DNA of 17,707 nt. Source: a virus (lineage: Duplodnaviria > Heunggongvirae > Uroviricota > Caudoviricetes). The stretch lies in the IMG/VR virus record IMGVR_UViG_3300001765_000263, positions 64,001 to 81,707 of that record; one strand, written 5' to 3'. Positions 2 to 16,883 of this stretch are shown here, one piece after another. The notes below the pieces were generated by a model. That model saw nothing but the letters and a program-made list of their open reading frames with translations. It searched no databases and had not been told where the DNA came from. How positions within the stretch are numbered: position 1 is the first letter of the stretch; every line of letters begins with the position of its first letter. Both the position numbers and the translations under genes were made by a program.

Positions 2-346
2 GGCAGTTTAATATCACTGCACAAAGAGGTATCTGACCCACACAGGCACACGATTGAAACCACTACTGAGGTTTTGGAATACGATTATCCATCATGGGAA
101 CACACATTGGCAATGATAGATCAGATGGATTATATCATTACCAATGAAACTTCAATTTCGGTAATGTCTGCTGCTATGGGGAAACCCACTATAGTCATTG
201 CACCTAAACCACCCTATATATGTTGGGCATCTCATATTCCTTGGTTTAAAGATGTTCATGTGTTTAGTAAGAACGATGAAAAATGGGAAGGCGCAATTGA
301 TGCTGCAGCAGACTACTTGAGGAATCGAATTGAAAGAGATATATGA
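2..346 (+). CDS. 5'-truncated GT9-like (GT-B fold) glycosyltransferase, C-terminal part; paralog of 2310-3785
   Basis: The frame is open from base 2 (GSLISLHKEV...), upstream of the TTG at 74 used by the track. WEHTLAMIDQMDYIITNETSISVMSAAMGKPTIVI aligns with FEDALACIGNLDLVITSCTSIAHAAAALGKKVIVF of 2310-3785, the typical GT9-like DLVIT.DT...H.A.ALG motif. Confidence 0.7.
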   Translation, partial: GSLISLHKEVSDPHRHTIETTTEVLEYDYPSWEHTLAMIDQMDYIITNETSISVMSAAMGKPTIVIAPKPPYICWASHIPWFKDVHVFSKNDEKWEGAIDAAADYLRNRIERDI

Positions 347-953
347 AGAAGTTCTGTCTGGATGGTTATACCAAACGAATGAGACTGGCGAAATAAAATA
401 TGATTACGACTATGTGCACAATGTGTATGACCGTTATGCCATGGTGGATGAAATGTCGAAATTGAGATATGACTTTATCAAGAGAAATGTCAAGTTTAAA
501 TCCATTCTAGACGTTGGGTATGGCAACGGATCATTCTTGAAGTATTGTTCAAAACATGGTAAAATATGCTTTGGGTATGATATATCTGGATATGAGTTAC
601 CAAAAGAAATAAGCGTTATAAATAGTATCAATGAGGCAGTCGATGTAGTTACATTTTTTGATTCATTAGAACATTTCCCACAACGAGATTTGAATTCTGT
701 TTTGGATCAATTGAAATGCAGATATATATCTATATCAGTTCCATGGAATCACTACTCAGGAAAAGATTTCAAGGACTGGAAACATAGAAAACCGAATGAA
801 CACCGACACCATTTTAATGCAACAGGTTTGGCAAGTTTGTTTTACAAGAGTAATTTTAGTTTGATTGAAGTGTCTTCATATGAAGACAAAATCAGGGGAA
901 CGATTCATGGGTTGCCCAATATATTGAGTGCAATTTTTAAAAAGTCAGAATGA
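330..953 (+). CDS. Class I SAM-dependent methyltransferase
   Basis: Motif I ILDVGYGNGSFL, then CFGYDIS and DVVTFFDSLEHF. TTG start with GAGGA at 319-323; overlaps the upstream stop. Confidence 0.8.
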   Translation: MKEIYEEVLSGWLYQTNETGEIKYDYDYVHNVYDRYAMVDEMSKLRYDFIKRNVKFKSILDVGYGNGSFLKYCSKHGKICFGYDISGYELPKEISVINSINEAVDVVTFFDSLEHFPQRDLNSVLDQLKCRYISISVPWNHYSGKDFKDWKHRKPNEHRHHFNATGLASLFYKSNFSLIEVSSYEDKIRGTIHGLPNILSAIFKKSE

Positions 954-960
954 GGTCATT

Positions 961-1755
961 ATGAAACTTGACGTAATTATTAGAACATGTGACAGATCAG
1001 GGGCATTACAGAATGGACAGATTCGGTTAGTGCCAGATGATCGTAAAGACATGATCTTGAAATGTGTCGATTCAGTATTCAAGGCATGTAATAACTCATA
1101 CCACAATATCAAAATCAAAGTTCTGGATGATCATTCGTCAGACGAGTTTCTGACAGAATTGAAAGAGAAAGCAGAGAAACTTTTCCATCCATATGAGGTT
1201 ATCAATCTGGAAGAGACTGGATTTAACCATTCTGCATTCATGCAATTCAAGACTGGATTGGAAGCAGAAGAATTGGTGTATTTCATTGAAGATGATTACT
1301 TCCATACTCCTGATGCAATCTCAACGATGACAAGTTTTATGCAAGCAGCACCTGCACAATCTTATCACCGTTTTAATCCTATGGTATTGACACCGTTTGA
1401 TTCACCACATCGATATTGGCCAGGATTGATTGAACCGTCATTGATGGTGTATTTTGAGAATCGCTATTGGAGAACGACACGATACACTGCCAACACCATG
1501 ATGATTCACAATCAAACACTGAAAACATTTTGGCCAATGTTTGAGAACCTTGCACGTAATTACCCAAAGGTAAAAGAGAACGACACGATCAATCAACTCT
1601 ATACCAATCTGGTTACACATGCTGGACCAATCGCATGTTTCTCACCAATCCCATCTGTTGCATATCATATGTCGTATCAGAATGAACCACCGAATGACTT
1701 GACGAACAAATTTACTAATTGGAAAAAGGAGTGGAATGATTATGAGTGGAATTAA
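961..1755 (+). CDS. GT-A fold (GT2-like) glycosyltransferase; paralog of 5746-6549
   Basis: VLDDHSSDEF and LVYFIEDDY (DxD-like) motifs, with a C-terminal PIPSVAYHM. The start is more likely the ATG at 961 (GAGG just upstream, 7 nt after the previous stop) than 928. Confidence 0.65.
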   Translation: MKLDVIIRTCDRSGALQNGQIRLVPDDRKDMILKCVDSVFKACNNSYHNIKIKVLDDHSSDEFLTELKEKAEKLFHPYEVINLEETGFNHSAFMQFKTGLEAEELVYFIEDDYFHTPDAISTMTSFMQAAPAQSYHRFNPMVLTPFDSPHRYWPGLIEPSLMVYFENRYWRTTRYTANTMMIHNQTLKTFWPMFENLARNYPKVKENDTINQLYTNLVTHAGPIACFSPIPSVAYHMSYQNEPPNDLTNKFTNWKKEWNDYEWN

Positions 1756-2317
1756 ATTACATTTGGGTAGTGGATACAAAAGTTTTGACGGATACAAAAA
1801 CGTAGATTTTGATGCGGCATGCAACCCTGATTTTGTGGTTGATCTGAGCAAACCAAATTGGCCATGGGAAGATAATTCAATTGATGCTGTTATCTCACAT
1901 CACCTCTTTGAACACTTAGGTGATCCAGACTTCTTTATTTTCCTCAAAGAACTTTATCGAATTTGCAAACCCAATGCAATCATTGAGGTGGTAGTTCCAC
2001 ATCACCGTCATGATTGTTTTATGAATGACCCAACCCATCGTCGCCCAATCACAATTGAGGGTATGAGATTGTTCAGTAAAGCACACAATAAATACTGCAT
2101 AGAGATTGAAGATGGTTCAAGTCGTTTGGGGTTGTATTACGACATTGACTTTGAGATTATTGATTATAAGTTCAACATTGATCCGATGTACCAACCAATG
2201 TTGCAAGATATGCAACAAGGGTCACAAGAAGAAGCACAATTTCAAAGAATGTTGCGTGAGTTAAATAATACAATTGTGGATGTTAAATTTACATGGATGG
2301 TGATTAAAGATGAGTGA
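1736..2317 (+). CDS. SAM-dependent methyltransferase (Methyltransf_11-like, glycan-cluster type)
   Basis: KLHLGSG, NVDF, DLSKPNWPWEDNSIDAVISHHLFEHL, LKELYRICKPNA, VPHHRHDCFMNDPTH. The start may be 1736 or 1742. Confidence 0.8.
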   Translation: MIMSGIKLHLGSGYKSFDGYKNVDFDAACNPDFVVDLSKPNWPWEDNSIDAVISHHLFEHLGDPDFFIFLKELYRICKPNAIIEVVVPHHRHDCFMNDPTHRRPITIEGMRLFSKAHNKYCIEIEDGSSRLGLYYDIDFEIIDYKFNIDPMYQPMLQDMQQGSQEEAQFQRMLRELNNTIVDVKFTWMVIKDE

Positions 2318-3785
2318 TTGTGTGACTGGAAACTGTCAGGTTCCTATGCCTACAGAACAATCTGGCGATAACATGCCAGCATATCAAAACGCAATGAACG
2401 ATTTTGCCGCATTGCATATGACTATTGATCTGCTCAATCGAACAGAGAATTTTGAACTTATCAAGACCTTGTTTGGAAAACTTGAGAAGGACAAAATCTT
2501 TCCAAAGAATGTCATGGGATATGACCTATTGTGCTATGCATATTACAAGGCAAAAGAGTACAAGACAGCAATCAAGTATGGTGAATTTGCCGTGGGTGCT
2601 GCTGGTACTCCACAAGAGAAAATGGCAGTGCGCTATAACATTGGCAAGTGTTATTTGAACGGGAACGAACCAATCAAGGCACGTAATTCGTTTGACATGG
2701 TTTCCAAGATGGATCCAAACAAGATTGATGTTAAGTTGGATCTTGCTGCTGCACTGTATGCATGTAACCAAAAAGAAGAGGCATACGAATTACTGAAAGT
2801 ACTTGAGGACGAGAGTTGGCGATTTGATGATCGTGATGCATTGGCGATTCAGTTCAATTTGGGCGCACACGAAATGCGTCATGGCAATTTTAAAACAGGT
2901 ATGGACTATCTCTCCATTGGTCGCAAATTAAGAATTTGGGGATCATATACTCACAGGTTTCCTATTCCAGAATGGGACGGTAAGACATATGAGGGCAAGC
3001 ATATCCTTGTAGTTGGTGAGGGTGGTATCGGAGATGAAATCATCAATGCACGTTTTGTTAAGCATGTCAATGATCGTGGTATGAAGATGTCGTTTGCATC
3101 ATGTCAGAAACTTGATTCCATTCTTGCCAGATTGCCTTTTGAGACTACATTCAACTATCAGAAATTTACGACAGACATTCCACAGATTATGGATTTTGAT
3201 TTCTGGACACCAGCAATGAACTTACCAAAAGTGTGCGGTGTGGATTTCGATGATTTGTGGTATGGAGCATATTTGACTGTTGATCCAGAATATGATGCAA
3301 AATGGAAAGAGATTCTGCCCGATACAGGCAAACTCAAAGTCGGTGTGCGTTGGTCTGGCAATCCTTTGTACGAACATGATTTGCATCGTTCATTACCACT
3401 AACAGGATTATGGGAAAAGATCAAGGACAAAGGGTGGGACGTGTATTCCATTCAACGTGATTATGATTTGGAACGTCTCACAGAATTTCCAGAGATTAAA
3501 CCATTGCACGATCATCTAGAAACCTTTGAGGATGCACTTGCGTGTATCGGCAATCTTGACCTTGTGATTACCTCATGTACGTCTATTGCCCATGCTGCAG
3601 CAGCATTAGGTAAGAAGGTGATTGTATTTACACCAATCATGGATTATTACATCTGGTCAGAGGGTAGGACAGATTCGAGTTGGTATGGAAACAATCTGCG
3701 ACTTGCTAGACAGACAGTGCCTAAGTCGTGGAAAGAACCACTAGATCAATTAGATCAATTGCTAGAAGAAGTGAATAATGCGTGA
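2310..3785 (+). CDS. TPR-repeat protein with C-terminal GT9-like glycosyltransferase domain
   Basis: The N-terminal half has TPR-like helices (YAYYKAKEYKTAIKY; YNIGKCYLNGNEPIKARNSF; LAAALYACNQKEEAYELL). Then PEWDGK..GKHILVVGEGGIGDEI..RF, KVGVRWSGNP and DLVITSCTSIAHAAAALGK, the architecture of TPR-GT9-like proteins. Confidence 0.75.
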   Translation: MSDCVTGNCQVPMPTEQSGDNMPAYQNAMNDFAALHMTIDLLNRTENFELIKTLFGKLEKDKIFPKNVMGYDLLCYAYYKAKEYKTAIKYGEFAVGAAGTPQEKMAVRYNIGKCYLNGNEPIKARNSFDMVSKMDPNKIDVKLDLAAALYACNQKEEAYELLKVLEDESWRFDDRDALAIQFNLGAHEMRHGNFKTGMDYLSIGRKLRIWGSYTHRFPIPEWDGKTYEGKHILVVGEGGIGDEIINARFVKHVNDRGMKMSFASCQKLDSILARLPFETTFNYQKFTTDIPQIMDFDFWTPAMNLPKVCGVDFDDLWYGAYLTVDPEYDAKWKEILPDTGKLKVGVRWSGNPLYEHDLHRSLPLTGLWEKIKDKGWDVYSIQRDYDLERLTEFPEIKPLHDHLETFEDALACIGNLDLVITSCTSIAHAAAALGKKVIVFTPIMDYYIWSEGRTDSSWYGNNLRLARQTVPKSWKEPLDQLDQLLEEVNNA

Positions 3786-4377
3786 TTTTAAATTCACCAT
3801 CAATTGGTTTCTTGATAAGGTAGATACCCTATTCATGATTCAAAAGGTTCAGGATTGGGAGAACAAACCTCTCTCAATCCTTGAGATTGGATCGTATGAA
3901 GGGTATTCGACCACATACTTCCTAGATGTGTATTGTGCAAATCCAGATTCAACTATCATGTGTATTGATAATTGGAAAGGTGGTGTTGAACATGATGGCA
4001 CAGATTTCGAAGAGATATATAGAACATTCCTTCACAATATGAATGAGAGTGGAAAGGTAAATCAAGTGTCTCACCTACGTGGAAGCAGTATAGATTGTTT
4101 ATGTCAATTGCAACAACAAAAGGCAAGATATGATTTTATCTATGTTGATGGGTCACATCAGGCAACTGATGTTTTGGGAGATTGTGTTTTAGGGTTCAAT
4201 ATGCTAAAGGTTGGTGGAGTTATCATGTGTGATGACTATCTATGGAATCAGAATATAAGTAGTTTGACCATGAGACCAAAACTGGCAATTGATTCGTTTG
4301 CTAACGTTTTTTCAGATAAAGTAGAGATATTCAGAACAATGTCAAATTGTTTTGCTGCAAAAAAGATTAAGGAGTAG
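3778..4377 (+). CDS. Class I SAM-dependent methyltransferase (Methyltransf_24-like)
   Basis: ILEIGSYEGYST, CIDNW, YDFIYVDGSH and LKVGGVIMCDDY. Confidence 0.85.
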   Translation: MRDFKFTINWFLDKVDTLFMIQKVQDWENKPLSILEIGSYEGYSTTYFLDVYCANPDSTIMCIDNWKGGVEHDGTDFEEIYRTFLHNMNESGKVNQVSHLRGSSIDCLCQLQQQKARYDFIYVDGSHQATDVLGDCVLGFNMLKVGGVIMCDDYLWNQNISSLTMRPKLAIDSFANVFSDKVEIFRTMSNCFAAKKIKE

Positions 4378-4379
4378 AT

Positions 4380-4931
4380 ATGACAGTTTCAGTCGCATTA
4401 GTTAAATTAATGTATGTTGATAATTTTTATAATGACATTCACGATATAGCAGGTGCAGTCTATGGATTGAACTATGTTCCAAAGAAATTTGGTCATGAAG
4501 TGGACGATTTTAATATGATTGATCCAAGTCTTATTAACAGATTCAGATACATGTGTCAAGATGATAAGTTGGTTATTGATGAAAAGAATTCTGGTGTATT
4601 CAGAAAACCTATGATCAATATCCACTATGAAGATTTCAAAACTGCTTTCGATTGGTGCTTTACCATTGCGTTAGTTGAAACACAATTTCAGTTATACAAA
4701 CACACTAACGGGACAGAGGATGCACTCGCAAATCCAACATTGAATTCATACAACAACAATATTTTGGAATGGGATTGCATCACTAGCGTTACTTTGAAAC
4801 CGAATCAATGTGTTTTCTTTAGACCGTGGTTATACCACTCGTTTTTAGGTGGTCTAACCCAACACTATATCATGAATCATGATATTTCATTATATACACC
4901 AGAAGAAAAAGCGAGAATAGGATTGACATGA
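4380..4931 (+). CDS. 2OG-Fe(II) oxygenase-like protein (resembles phage DUF6445-type), possibly degenerate
   Basis: N-terminal VDNFY, an HxE at IHYE (4623-4631), a distal His in CVFFRPWLYHS (4836-4838), and GLTQ where a conserved RLTQ is expected. Confidence 0.5.
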   Translation: MTVSVALVKLMYVDNFYNDIHDIAGAVYGLNYVPKKFGHEVDDFNMIDPSLINRFRYMCQDDKLVIDEKNSGVFRKPMINIHYEDFKTAFDWCFTIALVETQFQLYKHTNGTEDALANPTLNSYNNNILEWDCITSVTLKPNQCVFFRPWLYHSFLGGLTQHYIMNHDISLYTPEEKARIGLT

Positions 4932-5749
4932 TCGGAAAAACTGCTGCTTATACCATATGTAAAAACGAACATCAATTCGTTGAAAAATGGTTGTACTACA
5001 CTCGTGAGTTTGATTACCGTGTCGTCCTTGACACTGGTTCGACTGATGGCACATGGGAAGAGTTTGAGAAGGCAGCAAAGGATGACAAAAATCTAATCAT
5101 TGAACAAAGAACATTCACCCCTTGGCATTTTTCTGTTGCTCGTAATTACAACATGACGATGGTTCCCAAGGATGTTGAGTGGGGATTATCACCAGACCTT
5201 GATGAGTATTTTTCGATCAACGTGTTACCAGAGATGGAAAAGACTATTGCAAAAATACCCCAAGTAACCAACATATCGTGTGATCGTCTAGATGTGTATA
5301 GTGATGTGGTCAGAGTTGGACCACCAAAAACGATTGGTACGAACAAGATCCATCGTTTCACAAAGTATAAGTGGAATCAACCAATCTACGAACATCTGGT
5401 GTGGATTGGTGAAGGAAATGAACTAGAGATTTATAACGATGACATTTATCTTATTCATGATCAGGACTTCAAGAAAAAAGAACGTAGTCCTCTCTATCTA
5501 AAAATGCTGCGAGAGGAATATGAAGTAAATCCGTCAAACTGTTGGACATTGTGGTTTCTTGTCAATCATTATTTCAAGGAGCAAGACCTAGACAATTTTG
5601 TCAAGACTGCATGTGACTTTATTAGGTATTCCAATCAAGACGAAAAATACAAAGAGATTAGACAGGTGTTGATTAGATTTTATCAAAATGATGAAGTGAC
5701 ACCAGAGTATAAAACGATGATTCAAGATGCAATGAAAAGTCGAAGATGA
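4928..5749 (+). CDS. GT2 glycosyltransferase (SunS/flagellin-GT-like N-terminus) with helical C-terminus; paralog of 6549-7469
   Basis: ICKNE, VVLDTGSTDGT, HFSVARN, SPDLDE (DxD), YKWNQPIYEHL and IHDQD. ATGA overlap with the upstream gene. Confidence 0.85.
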   Translation: MIGKTAAYTICKNEHQFVEKWLYYTREFDYRVVLDTGSTDGTWEEFEKAAKDDKNLIIEQRTFTPWHFSVARNYNMTMVPKDVEWGLSPDLDEYFSINVLPEMEKTIAKIPQVTNISCDRLDVYSDVVRVGPPKTIGTNKIHRFTKYKWNQPIYEHLVWIGEGNELEIYNDDIYLIHDQDFKKKERSPLYLKMLREEYEVNPSNCWTLWFLVNHYFKEQDLDNFVKTACDFIRYSNQDEKYKEIRQVLIRFYQNDEVTPEYKTMIQDAMKSRR

Positions 5750-6549
5750 AATATAGAGTCGTCTTCACAACGCACGATACTCAAATAGAAAGTTTACATG
5801 GTGGTGCGCGACTGTTTGATTTAAACAGAACAGAACTGGCAATATTCTCGTTTATATCTCTCATGGATGCGTTTAAGACAGCAAACATATCCCCAGACGT
5901 TTATATTATTGCAGATCGAATCACAGACCGTTTGCGTAATTTTTTTATTTCACAGAATGTGACGGAGATTATAGATGTCAAACCACATGGCACGTTTGAA
6001 ACCCATGGGTTAAAACCTGGGCAGTTTCTGGCATGGTTGAATACTGCATATGAAAAGATTCTGACGTTTGAACCAGAAGATATCATCTGTCACGTTGAAG
6101 ATGATTATGTATTTGTGGAAGAGGCAATCGTTGCCATAGATGAATTATATAAAATGGCAGGGACATATTTGTATGGGTTTGAGAATACAGATTTCATTAT
6201 TCACCCAAGCAATGAACCTGCGATGTATAGGGAAAAAAGTCTAACTGGAAAACTGGATTACAGACTATTTTATTCTCTGTTTAGAGTTTGGGTGCAATCA
6301 GACGCAGCACACCACACACTTTTCTATAAGCAACGTCTTATTCATGACGAGTTCATGAAAAATGCCTACATCAATGAAGATGTGCACAATCGAGAACCGC
6401 AACTTTGGGAATTTAGCAAGAGGAATCTTGGGTTAAGACCAATCCCAAGTTTGGCAAATCACATGAACCCATTCAACTCTGATCGACACCTAAATTGGGG
6501 TGCTAGATTAGATCAACTATACCACAAATACAACTTAGGTAAATACTAA
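5746..6549 (+). CDS. GT-A fold glycosyltransferase-like protein; paralog of 961-1755
   Basis: IICHVEDDY and RPIPSLANHM match the motifs of 961-1755. ATGA overlap. Confidence 0.55.
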   Translation: MKYRVVFTTHDTQIESLHGGARLFDLNRTELAIFSFISLMDAFKTANISPDVYIIADRITDRLRNFFISQNVTEIIDVKPHGTFETHGLKPGQFLAWLNTAYEKILTFEPEDIICHVEDDYVFVEEAIVAIDELYKMAGTYLYGFENTDFIIHPSNEPAMYREKSLTGKLDYRLFYSLFRVWVQSDAAHHTLFYKQRLIHDEFMKNAYINEDVHNREPQLWEFSKRNLGLRPIPSLANHMNPFNSDRHLNWGARLDQLYHKYNLGKY

Positions 6550-7469
6550 TGAAAATATCTGCAGCAGTTATATGTAAGAACGAAGAGCAGTTTATCCCCA
6601 AGTGGTTAAACATAATGAAATCCGCAGATGAGATTGTGGTGGTTGATACAGGGTCAACTGATAATTCTGTCCAATTATTGCGCGATGCAGGATGTAAGGT
6701 GATAGAAGAAATAATTGAACCGTTCGATTTTTCAAAAGCAAGAAATTTATCTGTGTTAAATGTAAGTGATGACACAGACTGGATTGTTACAGTAGATTTT
6801 GACGAAATGTTAGACGAGAACTGGCGAGAAAAATTTGAAGAACATATTTCACACAATCCATTTACCACCGCAGTCTGGTGCAAAGTAAATAGTCTGAATG
6901 CAAATGATGAATGGGAAGAGTATAAAGAAGGAAACAAGAAATTTTATCGCAATAAATATTACCAATGGAAGAGTCGCATACATGAGCATTTGGTGGCAAG
7001 TGGTGAAGAAATTGAATCAAGATCTGATATATGGTTGCATCATTATGCAAACAACGTAGGTAAAAAGGATGCGTGGTACACAAAACTATGTATTGAGGAA
7101 TTTGAAGAAAATGGAAACCATCATGCATTGTGGTTTGCTATACAACATTTTGTAAGGAATGAAAAACCATACGAAATAGTCAAGTATTGTAAGGCATATT
7201 TGAACAGCACTAAACATGAGACCGTCTCATTCAGAATATACGTTTATCATCATTTGATCAATGAATTGGTTAAACAGAAGCAGTTTCAAGATGTGTTCTA
7301 CCATTGTATGGGGTTGTTGGTTGAACATGCGTCAGTGGAAACCCAAAATTACATTATTCAAACTGTTCTATCTTGCAATCATTTGTCTTTTGCATTATTT
7401 GTTATTGACACGTTTGGCAGACAGGACTTATCTGAACTAAGGGAACAAATTATTACCAACTTAAAATGA
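6549..7469 (+). CDS. GT2 glycosyltransferase (SunS/flagellin-GT-like) with helical TPR-like C-terminus
   Basis: ICKNEE, DEIVVVDTGSTDNS, FDFSKARN, DWIVTVDFDE and YQWKSRIHEHL. TAATG overlap. Confidence 0.85.
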   Translation: MKISAAVICKNEEQFIPKWLNIMKSADEIVVVDTGSTDNSVQLLRDAGCKVIEEIIEPFDFSKARNLSVLNVSDDTDWIVTVDFDEMLDENWREKFEEHISHNPFTTAVWCKVNSLNANDEWEEYKEGNKKFYRNKYYQWKSRIHEHLVASGEEIESRSDIWLHHYANNVGKKDAWYTKLCIEEFEENGNHHALWFAIQHFVRNEKPYEIVKYCKAYLNSTKHETVSFRIYVYHHLINELVKQKQFQDVFYHCMGLLVEHASVETQNYIIQTVLSCNHLSFALFVIDTFGRQDLSELREQIITNLK

Positions 7470-8161
7470 CATTCACAACTTCATATCGAACAGACGTAAA
7501 AGCAGCATATATTCTAAGAATTAAAGGGAATGAAATTTCCGAAGAATTTACAAAAAAGTGCATTGCATCTTGTGATGAAGTGTGTATGCCGTATGAGATT
7601 GTTGATTCATATGACGGAACTTCTGGAAAAATAATTCCTCCTGCTAAAGTTCCAGATTATATGAACTTAGTAAAAATTACAAATACAAGTTTGACTTTTG
7701 GAGAACAATGTTGTGCTCTAGGGCATTTCATGCTATGGGCAAAATGTGTTGAACTAGACCAACCAATAGTGATATTGGAACACGATGCCATAATGGTAAA
7801 ACCATATACAGAGCATAAATATATCAATGCTATCGTTTATCTAGGAAACATTTCCCAACAACGAGGGTTAAAGAATGGTGCAGACATTTATCACACCATA
7901 AACGGGAATTACACCTATATGAATAGAGCACATGCATATGCAATAGACCCTGCAGTGGCGAGGCAAATGGTGGCAAAGATCATAAAATACGGTATTTTTA
8001 CCATTAATGACGTGTTTATTAGACTTGATGAATTTTGTGTCATTCAAGACGGGTTTTATGCATACGATAAAGCAGAATACAAAACAACAATTACTGGCAG
8101 AACAAGACCTTCTTTAGATCAAAAAAAGAAAAGATTGGATCATATGATCAGAAATACCTAG
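7466..8161 (+). CDS. GT25-family glycosyltransferase
   Basis: TFGEQCCALGHFMLWAKCVELDQPIVILEHDA matches the GT25 pattern GE.GC.LSH..LW.......ILEDD. AHAYAIDP matches the downstream AYxI motif. Confidence 0.75.
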   Translation: MTFTTSYRTDVKAAYILRIKGNEISEEFTKKCIASCDEVCMPYEIVDSYDGTSGKIIPPAKVPDYMNLVKITNTSLTFGEQCCALGHFMLWAKCVELDQPIVILEHDAIMVKPYTEHKYINAIVYLGNISQQRGLKNGADIYHTINGNYTYMNRAHAYAIDPAVARQMVAKIIKYGIFTINDVFIRLDEFCVIQDGFYAYDKAEYKTTITGRTRPSLDQKKKRLDHMIRNT

Positions 8162-8178
8162 TTCGCAATTTGCTTATT

Positions 8179-8186
8179 TATAAATA
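8179..8186 (+). promoter_or_regulatory. T4-type late promoter TATAAATA
   Basis: Exact T4 gp55 consensus in the 49-nt intergenic gap, 24 nt before the 8211 start. It lies within the palindrome TATTTATAAATA (8175-8186). Confidence 0.8.
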
Positions 8187-8210
8187 TATAATACATTTTA
8201 AGGAACCACT

Positions 8211-8564
8211 ATGGCAATTATTACAAATACGTTCAATCGCTATGCAAAAAATAACATATCATCTGGTGGGGAATTGTTAATTGACACCACTGGTGTTCCA
8301 ACAAATACTGATATGACAGTTATGGGGTTTGTTATTACCAACGTTACTGCAGCACCAATAACAATTACCGCATACGTAAGAATTGATGGCAATCCACACC
8401 ATCTAGTCAAGAACAATATTATCCCAGAAGGTGAATCATTGATTGTTATTGGTTGGGATCAAAAGTTAGTGTTAAAAACTACGGATGATATCTACGTCGA
8501 AACTAGTGGTCCAACAGAATTTGCAGATGCAATTTTGTCTGTGTTAGAAATCGCAAAGGTATAA
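8211..8564 (+). CDS. Hypothetical small beta-rich phage protein, probably virion/fiber associated
   Basis: 117-aa ORF with AAGGA RBS, directly after a late promoter. VMGFVITNV...HLVKNNIIPEGESL...KLVL...D.IYV...DAILSVLEI resembles a recurrent hypothetical found upstream of fiber genes in aquatic phages (from memory, not searched). Confidence 0.6.
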   Translation: MAIITNTFNRYAKNNISSGGELLIDTTGVPTNTDMTVMGFVITNVTAAPITITAYVRIDGNPHHLVKNNIIPEGESLIVIGWDQKLVLKTTDDIYVETSGPTEFADAILSVLEIAKV

Positions 8565-8570
8565 ACACCT

Positions 8571-10376
8571 ATGTCATTTAAATATAGGACCGTTGGATAT
8601 TCACCAGAATATGCAACAACTACAGGGTCGACAACAAACGAATTTCATAATCCAAACAATTTCATGGATGGTTCCGTTGTTACATTTGAGGACAATTCTT
8701 TGCTAATTGCTGAGAGTGGTGCGGATATATTAGTATCCTCTGGGGCAACACTTAAAGTAACAGATGCCCCAACAACATCACTCGATGTCACTAACCTATC
8801 TTATGTAACGACCCAATTAGCATTAAAGTTAAATTTAGTTGGTGGAACGTTAACTGGTGCATTGACTTTGAGTGGTGCGCCAACTATTCCTCTTCATGCA
8901 GCAACCAAGGCATATGCAGACTTGATGTTGCCTTTAACTGGTGGGACATTGACTGGTGCTTTAGTATTAAATGGCGCACCAACATTACCATTACATGCAG
9001 CAACCAAGGCATATGCAGACTTGATGTTGCCTTTAACTGGTGGGACATTGACTAGTGGAGATTTAATACTAGCAAATCATCCGTCAGAGTTCTCAAATGG
9101 TAAAATTGCAGCAACAAAGGCATATGTAGATGCAAGATTAGGAATTTTTAATGCTGGTGCTGGTATTGGCAAAGCAAGCACCACATCAACTCCAATAACT
9201 GGAACATATGCTCAATCTGGTGCAGAAATTACTGTAACAACGAGTGTGTCACATGGGTACTCTAAGGATACTCTTGTAACGATAACCTTCTCTGGTGATC
9301 CAGTTAATGATCCAATAGATGGTGCATATTCAATCGTTACCTTACTTGGTCCAACTGGATTTGCTCTTGCTGCTGAAGACACAGCAACAAGAGCAGGGAC
9401 CGTGTCTATCGTTACAACAGTGCATGAAGTTTTTGTAGATTCAACCACATTGACAGTCAATGCAGACGGGTTAGATTTAACTGTATTGCATGATGCTGGT
9501 TTATTCTTAGAACCTATAGGGGCAGCAGCATACTCTGATACTGCATGGTACGATAAAGTTAAAGTTGATGAGTATGGTAGAGTAATTAGTGGTAAAAATA
9601 CCCCACTTGTTAATGCTGCAGATGGTACTTTTAATAAGGTGACAATATCTGGTGGTTATATTACATATGCATCAAATGAAGAATATCTAACAGAAAATGA
9701 TGAAATATCTTTGACTGGTGACGTTGTTGGTTCTGGAACTACTGCTATAAGTACGACCCTTTCTGTGATTGACGGGTTAAATGCTGGCACATACTCAAAA
9801 GTTACGGTAAACACCAAAGGTCGTGTCACCGCAGCATCACAATTAAGTGCAAGTGATATATCAAATGCATTAGGATACACCCCACCTAGAGATACAAATA
9901 TAAGATTCCTACACTTAAAATCTGGATATCAGGCACTGAGTTGGGGGTCATCCCCTGCAAACCTTGTTGTTGCAGGTTCTGATAATTGGCCAATGGGGTC
10001 AGAAGGGTTTTCAGTATCTGGTCAATATTTGTATGTACCAAAGGGTGTGTATCAAGTAATTTTCTACGGCACATCTAACTGGTGGCATGGATGGTATGGA
10101 TATTGGTGGAATGGGGACTGGTGGAATAACTACTCATCATATTACTATAACCCATCGATGATTGAAGTTAACGGTGTAATTCAATCTGCTGCTTTTTCAA
10201 ATTATGGCGGTTGGTGGTGGTACTGGAATAGACAATATTCATATCCAGATAAGTCACAAGATTTTTGCTTAACGGACACTTATTATCTGCCTTCAAATGG
10301 ATATATGAGGTTCTATGTTCCGCATTTATATGGTTGCACTTATTGGTATAACGTGAAGGTGGTTAAATTAAGATAA
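8571..10376 (+). CDS. Tail fiber/adhesin-like virion protein
   Basis: Shaft repeats GGTLTGAL..GAPT.PLHAATKAY, further repeats of the type GTYSKVTVNTKGRVTA, then ALGYTP and a C-terminal beta-sandwich-like head. It lies in the late module immediately before gp18. Confidence 0.75.
   Translation: MSFKYRTVGYSPEYATTTGSTTNEFHNPNNFMDGSVVTFEDNSLLIAESGADILVSSGATLKVTDAPTTSLDVTNLSYVTTQLALKLNLVGGTLTGALTLSGAPTIPLHAATKAYADLMLPLTGGTLTGALVLNGAPTLPLHAATKAYADLMLPLTGGTLTSGDLILANHPSEFSNGKIAATKAYVDARLGIFNAGAGIGKASTTSTPITGTYAQSGAEITVTTSVSHGYSKDTLVTITFSGDPVNDPIDGAYSIVTLLGPTGFALAAEDTATRAGTVSIVTTVHEVFVDSTTLTVNADGLDLTVLHDAGLFLEPIGAAAYSDTAWYDKVKVDEYGRVISGKNTPLVNAADGTFNKVTISGGYITYASNEEYLTENDEISLTGDVVGSGTTAISTTLSVIDGLNAGTYSKVTVNTKGRVTAASQLSASDISNALGYTPPRDTNIRFLHLKSGYQALSWGSSPANLVVAGSDNWPMGSEGFSVSGQYLYVPKGVYQVIFYGTSNWWHGWYGYWWNGDWWNNYSSYYYNPSMIEVNGVIQSAAFSNYGGWWWYWNRQYSYPDKSQDFCLTDTYYLPSNGYMRFYVPHLYGCTYWYNVKVVKLR
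8895..9053 (+). repeat. Perfect 60-nt direct repeat (8895-8954 and 8994-9053), period 99 nt = 33 aa
   Basis: catgcagcaaccaaggcatatgcagacttgatgttgcctttaactggtgggacattgact occurs twice identically. Confidence 0.95.
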
Positions 10377-10377
10377 T

Positions 10378-10385
10378 GATAAATA
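10378..10385 (+). promoter_or_regulatory. Probable late promoter (GATAAATA) for gp18-gp19
   Basis: NATAAATA variant in the intergenic gap before gp18; strong RBS AAGGAG at 10424-10429. Confidence 0.6.
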
Positions 10386-10437
10386 TACAATAATGCGAAA
10401 ACATTATCAGATAAAATTATAAAAAGGAGTACAAGTT

Positions 10438-13318: not shown

Positions 13319-15046
13319 ATGAAACTATTTGAAGATGCACAGCAGTATATCCAAAATCTTTTTGGATTAAATATTGAGAAGATCCCTGTTGCGGAAGACG
13401 AATCTGCCGCAATAGGGACTCCATATAATGACGACGGTTCTACTGTCGTTGCACCGTCTATTGGTGGTGCATATTATGGAGTTTACATGGATATCGATGG
13501 TGCTGTTAAAAGCGATATTGCGGCAATCACGCAGTATCGCCAATTGGCATTGTATCCAGAGGTCGATATTGCGATTCAGGATATTGTGAATGAAGCAATT
13601 CCTCATGAAAATGATTCTCCACAAATTGATGTCATCTTGGATGATTTGGATATTTCAGATAATCTAAAGATGAAGATTGAAGACGAATTTAAAATAGTTC
13701 TCTCCAAACTAAAATATACATCAATGTCGTCTGATATTTTCAGACGTTGGTATGTCGACGGCAGATTGTTTTTTCAGATCATTGTTGATAAGGTAAATCC
13801 ATCAAGAGGAATATTAGAACTGCGTCCTCTTGAAGCAACCAAAATTCGTAAAGTAAAAGAAGTTATTCGTGAAAAAACTCCAATGGGTGTCGATGCAGTT
13901 AAAGATGTGGTCGAGTACTACGTGTATAACGAAGCGGGATTTGGTGCATTGTCATCAACAGTTTCTACCAACACAAGCACGTCAGCATCTGTGCAAGGAA
14001 TTAAAATTAGTCCAGACTCTATTATCTATGTTCCGTCTGGTTACTTTGATACACAAAATCAGAATGGTAATTGTCTATCCTATATCCATAAAGCAATTCG
14101 ACCCATCAACCAATTAAGGATGCTTGAAGATGCTACTGTTGTTTACACTATTGCTCGTGCTCCTGAACGTAGAATATTTTATGTTGATGTTGGTAATCTA
14201 CCAAAACTTAAAGCAGAACAGTATGTAAAAGATTTGATGAACCGTTACAGAAACAAAATGGTTTATGACGCAAAGACTGGTGAAGTTAGAGATGACAAGA
14301 AATACATGAGCATGTTGGAAGATTTCTGGATGCCCCGTCGTGATGGTGGTAAGGGAACAGAAATTACTACATTGCCAGGCGCACAGAATCTTCAAGGTCA
14401 AATCGACGTGTTACAACAGTTCCAAGAAAAAATGTACATGTCATTGAATGTTCCTATCTCAAGAATCAAACCAGAAACTGGTTTCTCATTGGGACGTGGT
14501 AATGAAATCACACGAGATGAATTGAAATTCCAAAAGTTCATCGAGAAACTTCGTCGCAAGTTCTCTGTTCTTTTTTATGAGTCACTGAAAATACAGTTGA
14601 TCCTCAAAGGAATTATAAATAATGAAGAGTGGGAAGAAATCATTGAAAAGTTGCGTTTCAGGTATCAACGTGACAACTATTTTTCTGAGTTAAAGAATCA
14701 AGATATTTGGAATTCTCGATTCATGACGTTGCAAAGTGCGAACCAATATGCAGGTATCTATTTCAGTAAGAGATGGATTCAACAGAACGTGTTGCAAATG
14801 ACAGAAGAAGATATAGCACAAATGGAAGTTGAAATTGATGAAGAGCAGGATGACGAAACAGCAACAATATGGGGTCAGATGCAATTGAGTCAACCACCAA
14901 TGCCACCAGGAATGATGGGTGGTGATCCGTCAATGGGTGGGCAAGACCCATCTATGATGGGGCAAGATCCATTTGCAGCACAGGAACAAGGACAAGTACC
15001 ACCAGAAGAAGATGATGAGTCACAACAACCAAACCAAAAGTTTTAA
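13319..15046 (+). CDS. gp20: Portal vertex protein, T4 gp20 homolog
   Basis: YPEVDIAIQDIVNEA, FRRWYVDGR, LSYIHKAIRPINQLRMLEDA, RAPERRIFYVDVGNLPKLKAEQY, MLEDFWMPRRDGGKGTEITTLPG and EITRDELKFQKF. Confidence 0.98.
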   Translation: MKLFEDAQQYIQNLFGLNIEKIPVAEDESAAIGTPYNDDGSTVVAPSIGGAYYGVYMDIDGAVKSDIAAITQYRQLALYPEVDIAIQDIVNEAIPHENDSPQIDVILDDLDISDNLKMKIEDEFKIVLSKLKYTSMSSDIFRRWYVDGRLFFQIIVDKVNPSRGILELRPLEATKIRKVKEVIREKTPMGVDAVKDVVEYYVYNEAGFGALSSTVSTNTSTSASVQGIKISPDSIIYVPSGYFDTQNQNGNCLSYIHKAIRPINQLRMLEDATVVYTIARAPERRIFYVDVGNLPKLKAEQYVKDLMNRYRNKMVYDAKTGEVRDDKKYMSMLEDFWMPRRDGGKGTEITTLPGAQNLQGQIDVLQQFQEKMYMSLNVPISRIKPETGFSLGRGNEITRDELKFQKFIEKLRRKFSVLFYESLKIQLILKGIINNEEWEEIIEKLRFRYQRDNYFSELKNQDIWNSRFMTLQSANQYAGIYFSKRWIQQNVLQMTEEDIAQMEVEIDEEQDDETATIWGQMQLSQPPMPPGMMGGDPSMGGQDPSMMGQDPFAAQEQGQVPPEEDDESQQPNQKF

Positions 15047-16875: not shown

Positions 16876-16883
16876 TATAAATA
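16876..16883 (+). promoter_or_regulatory. T4-type late promoter TATAAATA for gp22
   Basis: Exact consensus in the gp21-gp22 gap, followed by an AAGGAG RBS and the ATG at 16912. Confidence 0.8.

Follow-up and report, generated by a model that had tools for sequence, protein, structure and literature searches.

The window analysed here, a stretch of 17,707 nucleotides that forms the last 17.7 kb (contig C1:64001-81707) of the 81.7-kb IMG/VR virus record IMGVR_UViG_3300001765_000263, opens with a compact cassette of glycosyltransferase and methyltransferase genes, a candidate system for decorating the phage's own fibre proteins, which is the subject of this report. Eleven plus-strand open reading frames (ORFs) lie within positions 2-8161, of which seven encode glycosyltransferase-like proteins, three encode methyltransferases and one encodes an Fe(II)/2-oxoglutarate (Fe/2OG) oxygenase (Table 1). 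ORF mapping confirmed the eleven co-oriented genes and the coordinates given for them in an earlier note made from the sequence, and the results of Pfam scans, paralogy, Atlas comparisons and the predicted fold of ORF7 upheld its assignment of the products. The note had allowed for gaps of up to 7 nt; every junction in fact overlaps or has a gap of at most 2 nt, and the 49-nt gap that it reported 3′ of ORF11 is present. The extent of the cassette, in contrast, needed revision: although the eleven genes of the window stand, ORF1 is cut by the window edge, and the true unit begins 1.5 kb 5′ of the window with a sulfotransferase gene that precedes and overlaps ORF1, so that we count twelve genes. 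Similarly, the description of the cassette as abutting the virion genes is correct with regard to adjacency but understates the arrangement, because the cassette is embedded among them, within a fibre module. Five RCC1-repeat genes (460 to 1824 aa), one of them at C1:55164-56546, lie directly 5′ of the sulfotransferase gene, a tail-fibre-like gene lies downstream, and the sheath gene lies beyond. A Pfam scan identified T4-type genes 3′ of the cassette (sheath, tube, portal, prohead protease and scaffold). The record is approximately 47% complete (CheckV), and its portal protein reaches no more than 49.5% identity with those of cyanomyoviruses (S-CREM1, for example), a distance from which we take the source phage to be a distant T4-like myovirus.

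Table 1. The modification cassette and the features next to it (window positions, or contig positions where prefixed with C1).
Feature	Position	Strand	Remarks
TATAAATA box, 5′ side of cassette	C1:62439	+	46 nt before sulfotransferase start
Sulfotransferase	C1:62485-63264		Sulfotransfer_3, E 9e-18
ORF1 (3′ part), short TPR-like N-terminus and GT9-fold glycosyltransferase	2..346	+	ORF5 paralog; full gene C1:63246-64346, 366 aa
ORF2, class I S-adenosylmethionine (SAM) methyltransferase	330..953	+	Methyltransf_23 E 8.8e-17; phrog_6564
ORF3, GT2-type GT-A glycosyltransferase, IEDDY motif	928..1755	+	PF00535 E 1.2e-8
ORF4, small SAM methyltransferase	1736..2317	+	Methyltransf_11 E 1.3e-7; conserved partner directly 5′ of the TPR-glycosyltransferase
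ORF5, TPR (~22-205) and GT9-fold GT-B (~224-491)	2310..3785	+	TPR_19 Pfam match; AlphaFold2 model
ORF6, cation-dependent O-methyltransferase-like (TylF/CCoAOMT type)	3778..4377	+	Methyltransf_24 E 1.5e-19; Methyltransf_3 E 9e-8
ORF7, Fe(II)/2-oxoglutarate oxygenase fold, prolyl-hydroxylase-like	4380..4931	+	AlphaFold2 fold; conserved motif
ORF8, GT2-like glycosyltransferase	4928..5749	+	ORF10 paralog; PF00535/PF13704 weak; phrog_13126 E 1e-28
ORF9, probable GT-A glycosyltransferase, VEDDY motif	5746..6549	+	Distant ORF3 paralog, blastp E 5e-4
ORF10, GT2 glycosyltransferase, helical C-terminal extension	6549..7469	+	PF00535 E 1.3e-13; phrog_13126 E 1e-36
ORF11, GT25 glycosyltransferase, last gene of cassette	7466..8161	+	PF01755 E 6.8e-13
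TATAAATA box in the 49-nt gap after ORF11	8179..8186	+	32 nt before next gene
117-aa gene, outside the enzyme cassette	8211..8564	+	Zero Pfam or PHROG matches
601-aa tail-fibre-like protein	8571..10376	+	phrog_7389 tail fiber protein E 5.8e-8

What might these enzymes modify? The architecture of ORF5 points to a protein. An AlphaFold2 (AF2) model built with 46 homologs (predicted local distance difference test, pLDDT, 91.4) comprises helical repeats at residues 22-205 followed by a Rossmann-type domain at residues 224-491. Its best match among the Swiss-Prot models of AFDB is full-length, to the Caulobacter protein FlbA (P21296, 596 aa; E 3.7e-19), with template modelling (TM) scores of 0.73/0.61 over residues 39-491 and 487 aligned columns; the next structural matches are also TPR protein glycosyltransferases, namely bacterial OGT, SPINDLY and human OGT. 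The glycosyltransferase domain itself has the GT9 fold, with Z scores of 19.7 against 3tov, 18.3 against WaaF (1psw), 17.3 against WaaC (2h1f) and 16.2 against TibC (4rap), and the PF01075 (Glyco_transf_9) profile gave zero matches at E ≤ 0.01 for ORF1 or ORF5. Residues G239, G241, D242 and E243 are invariant in the 46 homologs, and ORF1 has the motif GYGDEI; the Asp of this N-terminal Gly-rich loop of ORF5 may be the equivalent of the catalytic Asp of WaaC. In the glycosyltransferase domain, ORF1 and ORF5 share 28% identity (blastp, E 5e-21), and ORF1 matches Atlas clusters of the TPR plus Glyco_transf_9 type with TM scores of 0.80-0.85, some of these look-alike clusters carrying PF01075. When the divergence of the TPR and glycosyltransferase parts of ORF1 and ORF5 was compared in two related phages, a clear pattern was not found. 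FlbA P21296 is presumably the protein now called FlmG, because the two have an identical length (596 residues) and because flbA-flaG literature is cited for FlmG (PMC7591256). FlmG is a soluble flagellin O-glycosyltransferase, the TPR domain of which binds the substrate (PMC7591256), and ORF5 is therefore best regarded, on its modelled structure, as a candidate FlmG-like protein O-glycosyltransferase. The comparison with bacterial flagellin glycosylation islands drawn in the earlier note was thus apt, and the structure searches that it had advised for fixing the families assigned ORF5 to the GT9 fold with a TPR domain and ORF7 to the Fe/2OG oxygenases.

The genes that accompany ORF5 elsewhere suggest what this protein might be. 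The ORF5 family is large, with more than 1300 homologs in a protein collection and members on at least 563 IMG/VR stretches. We clustered 86 IMG/VR loci carrying an ORF5 homolog at 80% identity and examined the neighbours within 10 kb in the resulting 36 non-redundant groups. An ORF4-like methyltransferase gene was present in 29 of the 36, nearly always directly 5′ of the ORF5 homolog; RCC1 genes were present in 28, a sulfotransferase gene in 26, an ORF7-like oxygenase gene in 20 and a GT25 gene in 9. Where the neighbours are annotated, they are of fibre type (Peptidase_S74, DUF4376, Laminin_G_3 and RCC1), often with an APS (adenosine 5′-phosphosulfate) kinase, and T4 neck or terminase genes lie farther out. 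In a collection of 50,697 phage records, RCC1 homologs occur in 22 and ORF5 homologs in only four (Synechococcus phage S-SRM01, represented twice, BUCT-ZZ01 and a marine single-virus assembly), and all four ORF5 records also carry RCC1 genes a few kb away. A megablast search of the same collection with the cassette gave zero matches. In the closest relative (locus L003, portal 90% identical), the sulfotransferase gene, ORF1-7, ORF9 and ORF10 follow one another as they do here, but ORF8, ORF11 and both of the genes 3′ of the cassette (117 aa and 601 aa) are missing; its 2360-aa RCC1 gene begins just past the flank that was examined.

The association with RCC1 extends to bacterial chromosomes. 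A scan of bacterial genomes yielded 30 loci, mostly from Bdellovibrionota. Large RCC1 genes lie no more than 8 kb away in 20 of them, and an ORF4-like methyltransferase gene is present in many. In Bdellovibrio bacteriovorus Bd16 (CP168971, locus L100, 4722-16141), an operon-like chromosomal block adjoining housekeeping genes encodes, in order, a secreted-looking 1038-aa protein, a GT9-fold glycosyltransferase without a long TPR region (336 aa), a methyltransferase (188 aa) and two RCC1 proteins (1091 and 1073 aa); the glycosyltransferase and methyltransferase genes are at 7875-9453. The Bd16 RCC1 proteins start with Tat-like SRRAFL signals, whereas the phage RCC1 proteins have no signal peptide. 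Because the Tat pathway exports folded proteins, these signals would allow the proteins to be modified in the cytoplasm first.

A third line of evidence concerns ORF7. Its AF2 model (pLDDT 94.5) has the double-stranded beta-helix fold of Fe/2OG oxygenases, with structural matches to OGFOD1, ALKBH6 and HygX (E 2e-4 to 9e-4) and TM scores of 0.63-0.71 to prolyl-4-hydroxylase-like AFDB clusters; a Pfam hidden Markov model scan gave zero matches. The residues of the metal-binding triad H82-x-E84...H153 recur, in that order, in 32, 34 and 31 of the 37 homologs. In the metagenomic proteins P0127 and P0129 (830 and 484 aa), a domain of the ORF7 type is fused N-terminally to RCC1 repeats, and in P0133 (313 aa, also metagenomic) it is fused N-terminally to an APS-kinase-like P-loop domain. 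A structurally similar domain (TM 0.71) is fused to a GT2 domain in A0A6C0DAV7.

The remaining enzymes are consistent with a soluble glycan-building set. Three paralog pairs were recognized by blastp, namely ORF1/ORF5, ORF3/ORF9, both of which have the EDDY motif, and ORF8/ORF10 (33% identity, E 1.6e-25). ORF9 had zero matches in the Pfam scan and an Atlas score of 0.98 to viral GT2-like clusters, one of which is 60% GT2; ORF6 had weak PDB matches to O-methyltransferases. Sequence searches of the PDB with ORF1, ORF7 and ORF9 gave nothing useful, and with the sulfotransferase they returned only a 25-residue match (E 0.025) to tyrosylprotein sulfotransferases at the loop that binds 3′-phosphoadenosine 5′-phosphosulfate (PAPS), a match too weak to tell whether the acceptor is a protein or a sugar. 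Hydrophobic segments strong enough to span a membrane are absent from all twelve cassette proteins (maximum KD19, 1.55), and Pfam scans of the region showed no flippase, polymerase, ligase or polyprenyl-phosphate transferase. A nucleotide-sugar synthesis gene was likewise not found in the Pfam scans of the cassette region, in agreement with the earlier note, which had seen none in the window; on the 81.7-kb contig, which represents about half a genome, a PF01370 epimerase and an APS kinase were not found either. Scans with NCBIfam and PADLOC gave zero informative matches, and the cassette is unlike a defence system.

The promoter-like sequences around the cassette suggest when it is expressed. 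The sequence TATAAATA, which is the T4 late-promoter consensus, occurs 11 times on the plus strand of the contig; five of these copies are intergenic, although intergenic DNA makes up 2.6% of the contig (P = 5e-6). Two of the intergenic copies bracket the cassette exactly, and by its position the one after ORF11 would mark the start of the next transcription unit. The 5′ box is kept in the closest relative, and a NATAAATA box lies 33-54 nt 5′ of the sulfotransferase gene in 11 of 26 representative related loci. The cassette is thus apparently one late-expressed transcription unit, as judged from these boxes and the gene spacing. Further boxes were seen in the window: a near-consensus late box, GATAAATA, in the stretch 10377-10437 precedes the sheath gene, a TATAAATA copy at 16876-16883 precedes the scaffold gene, and other copies lie inside ORF2 (617-624) and inside the portal gene (14614-14621). 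Among public sequencing runs, an RNA run containing this DNA was not found, and the sole strong DNA match was a microbial-mat metagenome, perhaps the sample from which the record came.

On balance, we lean towards the view that the cassette glycosylates fibre-like structural proteins in the cytoplasm late in infection, adding methyl and sulfate groups and perhaps hydroxyl groups as well. A protein acceptor is favoured over lipid-linked glycans or DNA, and the most probable acceptors are the adjacent RCC1-repeat (beta-propeller) fibre-like proteins, which would be decorated before assembly. This reading rests on the FlmG-like enzyme pair, the entirely soluble enzyme set, the late-type boxes, the position in the fibre module, the oxygenase-RCC1 fusions and the finding that genes for glycosyltransferase, methyltransferase and RCC1 proteins keep company in genomes of unrelated types. 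In the pathway that we envisage, ORF5 and its paralog ORF1 would act in the manner of FlmG, the TPR domain holding the acceptor protein while the GT-B domain attaches the first sugar. The GT-A enzymes ORF3, ORF9, ORF8, ORF10 and ORF11, the last of which is the GT25 enzyme, would then extend the glycan, which ORF4, ORF2 and ORF6 would methylate. The upstream sulfotransferase would sulfate the glycan or the protein, ORF7 might hydroxylate the protein or a sugar, and the sugar donors and PAPS would be supplied by the host. The variable periphery of the cassette (ORF1-3, ORF6 and ORF8-11) would serve to elaborate the glycan. We infer the status of the RCC1 proteins as virion components, as well as the acceptor, the order of the steps and their chemistry, from the genes and their arrangement. 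The proposal of the earlier note that the phage builds a methylated glycan on its own particle is favoured in its general form by indirect comparative evidence, but the acceptor narrows from sheath, fibre and head to fibre-like RCC1 proteins, and the chemistry, in addition to methylation, probably includes sulfation and possibly hydroxylation.

Several observations weigh against this interpretation. ORF5 and FlbA share only 19% identity, the promoter boxes are consensus matches only, and the 36 loci are not fully independent because phage neighbourhoods share ancestry. Nor is the link with RCC1 universal: three of five RCC1-less contigs that were tested, one of them 225 kb long, have no RCC1 gene anywhere on the fragment. 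In addition, GT25, GT2 and the GT9 fold are classic families of lipopolysaccharide (LPS) core synthesis, and cyanomyovirus clusters with many glycosyltransferases are conventionally read as modifying the host cell wall (PMC12801897).

The last two points make remodelling of the host envelope a real, if unlikely, alternative. The enzymes would in that case act at the inner face of the membrane on intermediates of LPS core, O-antigen or exopolysaccharide, and the outcome might be superinfection exclusion, less re-adsorption of progeny to debris, or altered grazing. The solubility of the cassette proteins does not speak against this, since peripheral LPS glycosyltransferases are likewise soluble, and the weak NoeE-like match of the sulfotransferase suggests a carbohydrate sulfotransferase. 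However, neither a membrane-associated component nor a nucleotide-sugar gene was found in the region, characterised TPR-fused glycosyltransferases of the ORF5 architecture modify proteins, and the unit is bracketed by late-type boxes within a fibre module. Furthermore, the linkage with RCC1 is also seen in Bdellovibrio chromosomes, for which phage exclusion is no explanation, and the oxygenase domain is found fused to RCC1.

A protein might also be glycosylated without being part of the virion, such as host flagellin, pilin, an S-layer or other surface protein, or a non-structural phage protein, with the RCC1 proteins serving as secreted or injected effectors. The FlmG-like fold would fit such a target, and the Bdellovibrio RCC1 proteins look exported. 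Nevertheless, we consider this explanation improbable, because the phage RCC1 genes lie between baseplate/fibre genes and the sheath gene and encode no signal peptide, because late-type boxes flank the unit, and because its neighbours in related phages are of fibre type. Finally, decoration of modified bases by the glycosyltransferases and methyltransferases as a means of evading restriction is very unlikely: phage glycosyltransferases do often glycosylate DNA, as has been reviewed, and ORF6 weakly matches a PHROG labelled DNA methyltransferase, but regional Pfam scans of the 81.7-kb fragment revealed no hydroxymethyl-base or other base-modification gene, the TPR, sulfotransferase and oxygenase make-up, the fibre-module position and the late-type promoters point elsewhere, and the same genes are linked to RCC1 in Bdellovibrio.

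How might the cassette have acquired its present form? The largest versions among the loci examined are those of this phage and its closest relative, L003. ORF1 is approximately 50% identical between the two (L003:6880-8037), and its neighbours are 77-92% identical. This low identity of ORF1, together with the differing 3′ end, where only this phage of the two has ORF8 and ORF11, suggests mosaic exchange within the cassette, as read from the sequences. In loci L073, L075-L077, L086-L088, L090 and L095, the ORF8 homologs are 55-65% identical to ORF8 and the ORF5 homologs only 33-37% identical to ORF5; ORF8 may be either unusually conserved or recently exchanged. The contig of the closest relative (record G001, IMGVR_UViG_3300001765_000038) contains an uninterrupted 5017-aa frame full of RCC1 repeats at C1:43500-58000, which exceeds the five-gene RCC1 array of this phage, and 72 RCC1 repeat matches were counted on that contig. 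ORF11 also matches positions 57-168 of phrog_61, a profile of 689 positions labelled '2OG-Fe(II) oxygenase' (E 2e-11); this phage family probably contains GT25-oxygenase fusions. The 601-aa protein downstream of the cassette has short tandem repeats of the LPLHAATKAYADLMLPLTGGTLTG type and a C-terminal region of 120 residues that is extremely rich in Trp, Tyr, Gly and Asn. A guess from T4 gene order that its gene might encode the terminase was rejected, because the protein is fibre-like both by its sequence and by its match to phrog_7389.

More speculatively, these genes may belong to a widespread and so far undescribed cytoplasmic modification system dedicated to RCC1-type beta-propeller proteins, an idea that we put forward only tentatively. 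Such a system would pair an FlmG-like GT9-fold glycosyltransferase with an obligate small methyltransferase, often together with a prolyl-hydroxylase-like oxygenase and a PAPS-dependent sulfotransferase, and would build methylated, sulfated O-glycans, perhaps primed by hydroxylation, on the propeller blades. T4-like phages might use it to diversify or shield the fibres with which they recognize hosts, and Bdellovibrio might use it on propeller proteins exported by the Tat pathway; the 12-gene version described here would then make an unusually complex fibre glycan.

To our knowledge, glycosylation of receptor-binding or fibre proteins has so far not been shown in T4-like phages or cyanophages. 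If the proposed reading is true, glycans on the fibres would be a further factor in host range and adsorption and in withstanding proteases or defence systems, and the standard host-surface reading of 'LPS genes' in aquatic phages would have to be revised. The glycosyltransferase, methyltransferase and RCC1 genes, a conserved set that Bdellovibrio shares, predict an enzyme-substrate pair amenable to testing in culture, with S-SRM01, BUCT-ZZ01 and B. bacteriovorus as the systems. The enzymes would also include possible tools for glycoengineering, namely soluble protein glycosyltransferases, sugar methyltransferases and sulfotransferases. Literature searches for a module that combines a TPR-glycosyltransferase, methyltransferase, sulfotransferase, oxygenase and RCC1 did not find a description in phages or Bdellovibrio; mentions of 'RCC1' in papers on prasinoviruses and single cells proved to be strain numbers of the Roscoff Culture Collection and not the protein domain.

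With which known systems, then, can this cassette be compared? Chloroviruses and mimiviruses are known to glycosylate their virions. The chlorovirus PBCV-1 encodes several glycosyltransferases (A064R and others) and methyltransferases that work in the cytoplasm, without recourse to glycosylation at host membranes, and that make methylated glycans on a structural protein of the virus itself; that system belongs to a eukaryotic giant virus, produces N-linked glycans on the major capsid protein, and is not known to include a TPR-glycosyltransferase, sulfotransferase or RCC1 acceptor. Among phages, virion glycosylation has been established in mycobacteriophages (Freeman et al. 2023). The phage glycosyltransferase genes there are likewise reported to adjoin virion structural genes, and the glycans to be attached to the phages' own structural proteins. 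Those phages are siphoviruses of actinobacteria, reported to use one or two glycosyltransferases to modify the C-termini of capsid and tail-tube proteins; in contrast, we are dealing with a T4-like myovirus with seven glycosyltransferases in addition to methyl-, sulfo- and oxygenase enzymes, linked to fibre-like RCC1 proteins.

Closer in phage lineage are the 'LPS' or cell-wall clusters of the cyanomyoviruses P-SSM2, S-SCSM1 and S-SCSM2R, related T4-like phages that carry many GT2, GT25 and other glycosyltransferases (PMC12801897). Nucleotide-sugar epimerases, KdsA/B and RmlC are part of those clusters and were not found in the region of our cassette; the clusters have been read as acting on the host surface without experiment, and the core of TPR-glycosyltransferase, methyltransferase, sulfotransferase, oxygenase and RCC1 is not described there (PMC12801897). 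At the level of the enzyme fold, the glycosyltransferase domain of ORF5 shares the GT9 fold with TibC/AAH (BAHT) and with the LPS heptosyltransferases WaaC/WaaF, although ORF5, unlike these, carries a TPR domain and lacks a PF01075 match at E ≤ 0.01. TibC and AAH glycosylate the product of a neighbouring gene in the cytoplasm before export, as we propose for the RCC1 proteins. As the closest known system, however, TibC/AAH was rejected, given that its fold match is weaker than those of the LPS GT9 enzymes, that it has no TPR, and that FlmG fits the whole protein better.

The Caulobacter crescentus enzyme FlmG (formerly FlbA) differs in its setting. Within 20 kb, the neighbours of our cassette are RCC1-repeat, fibre, sheath, tube and portal genes, and no flagellin gene was seen; regional Pfam scans, which did not include a search aimed at NeuB or Pse, showed no pseudaminic-acid (NeuB/Pse) genes. 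ORF5 is also accompanied, unlike FlmG, by methyltransferases, a sulfotransferase, an oxygenase and five GT-A enzymes. Nevertheless, ORF5 resembles FlmG in being one protein, predicted to be soluble, that joins a TPR domain at the N-terminus to a GT-B domain at the C-terminus, and the target of FlmG is modified in the cytoplasm before it becomes an extracellular filament (PMC7591256), as we propose for the fibre proteins of this phage.

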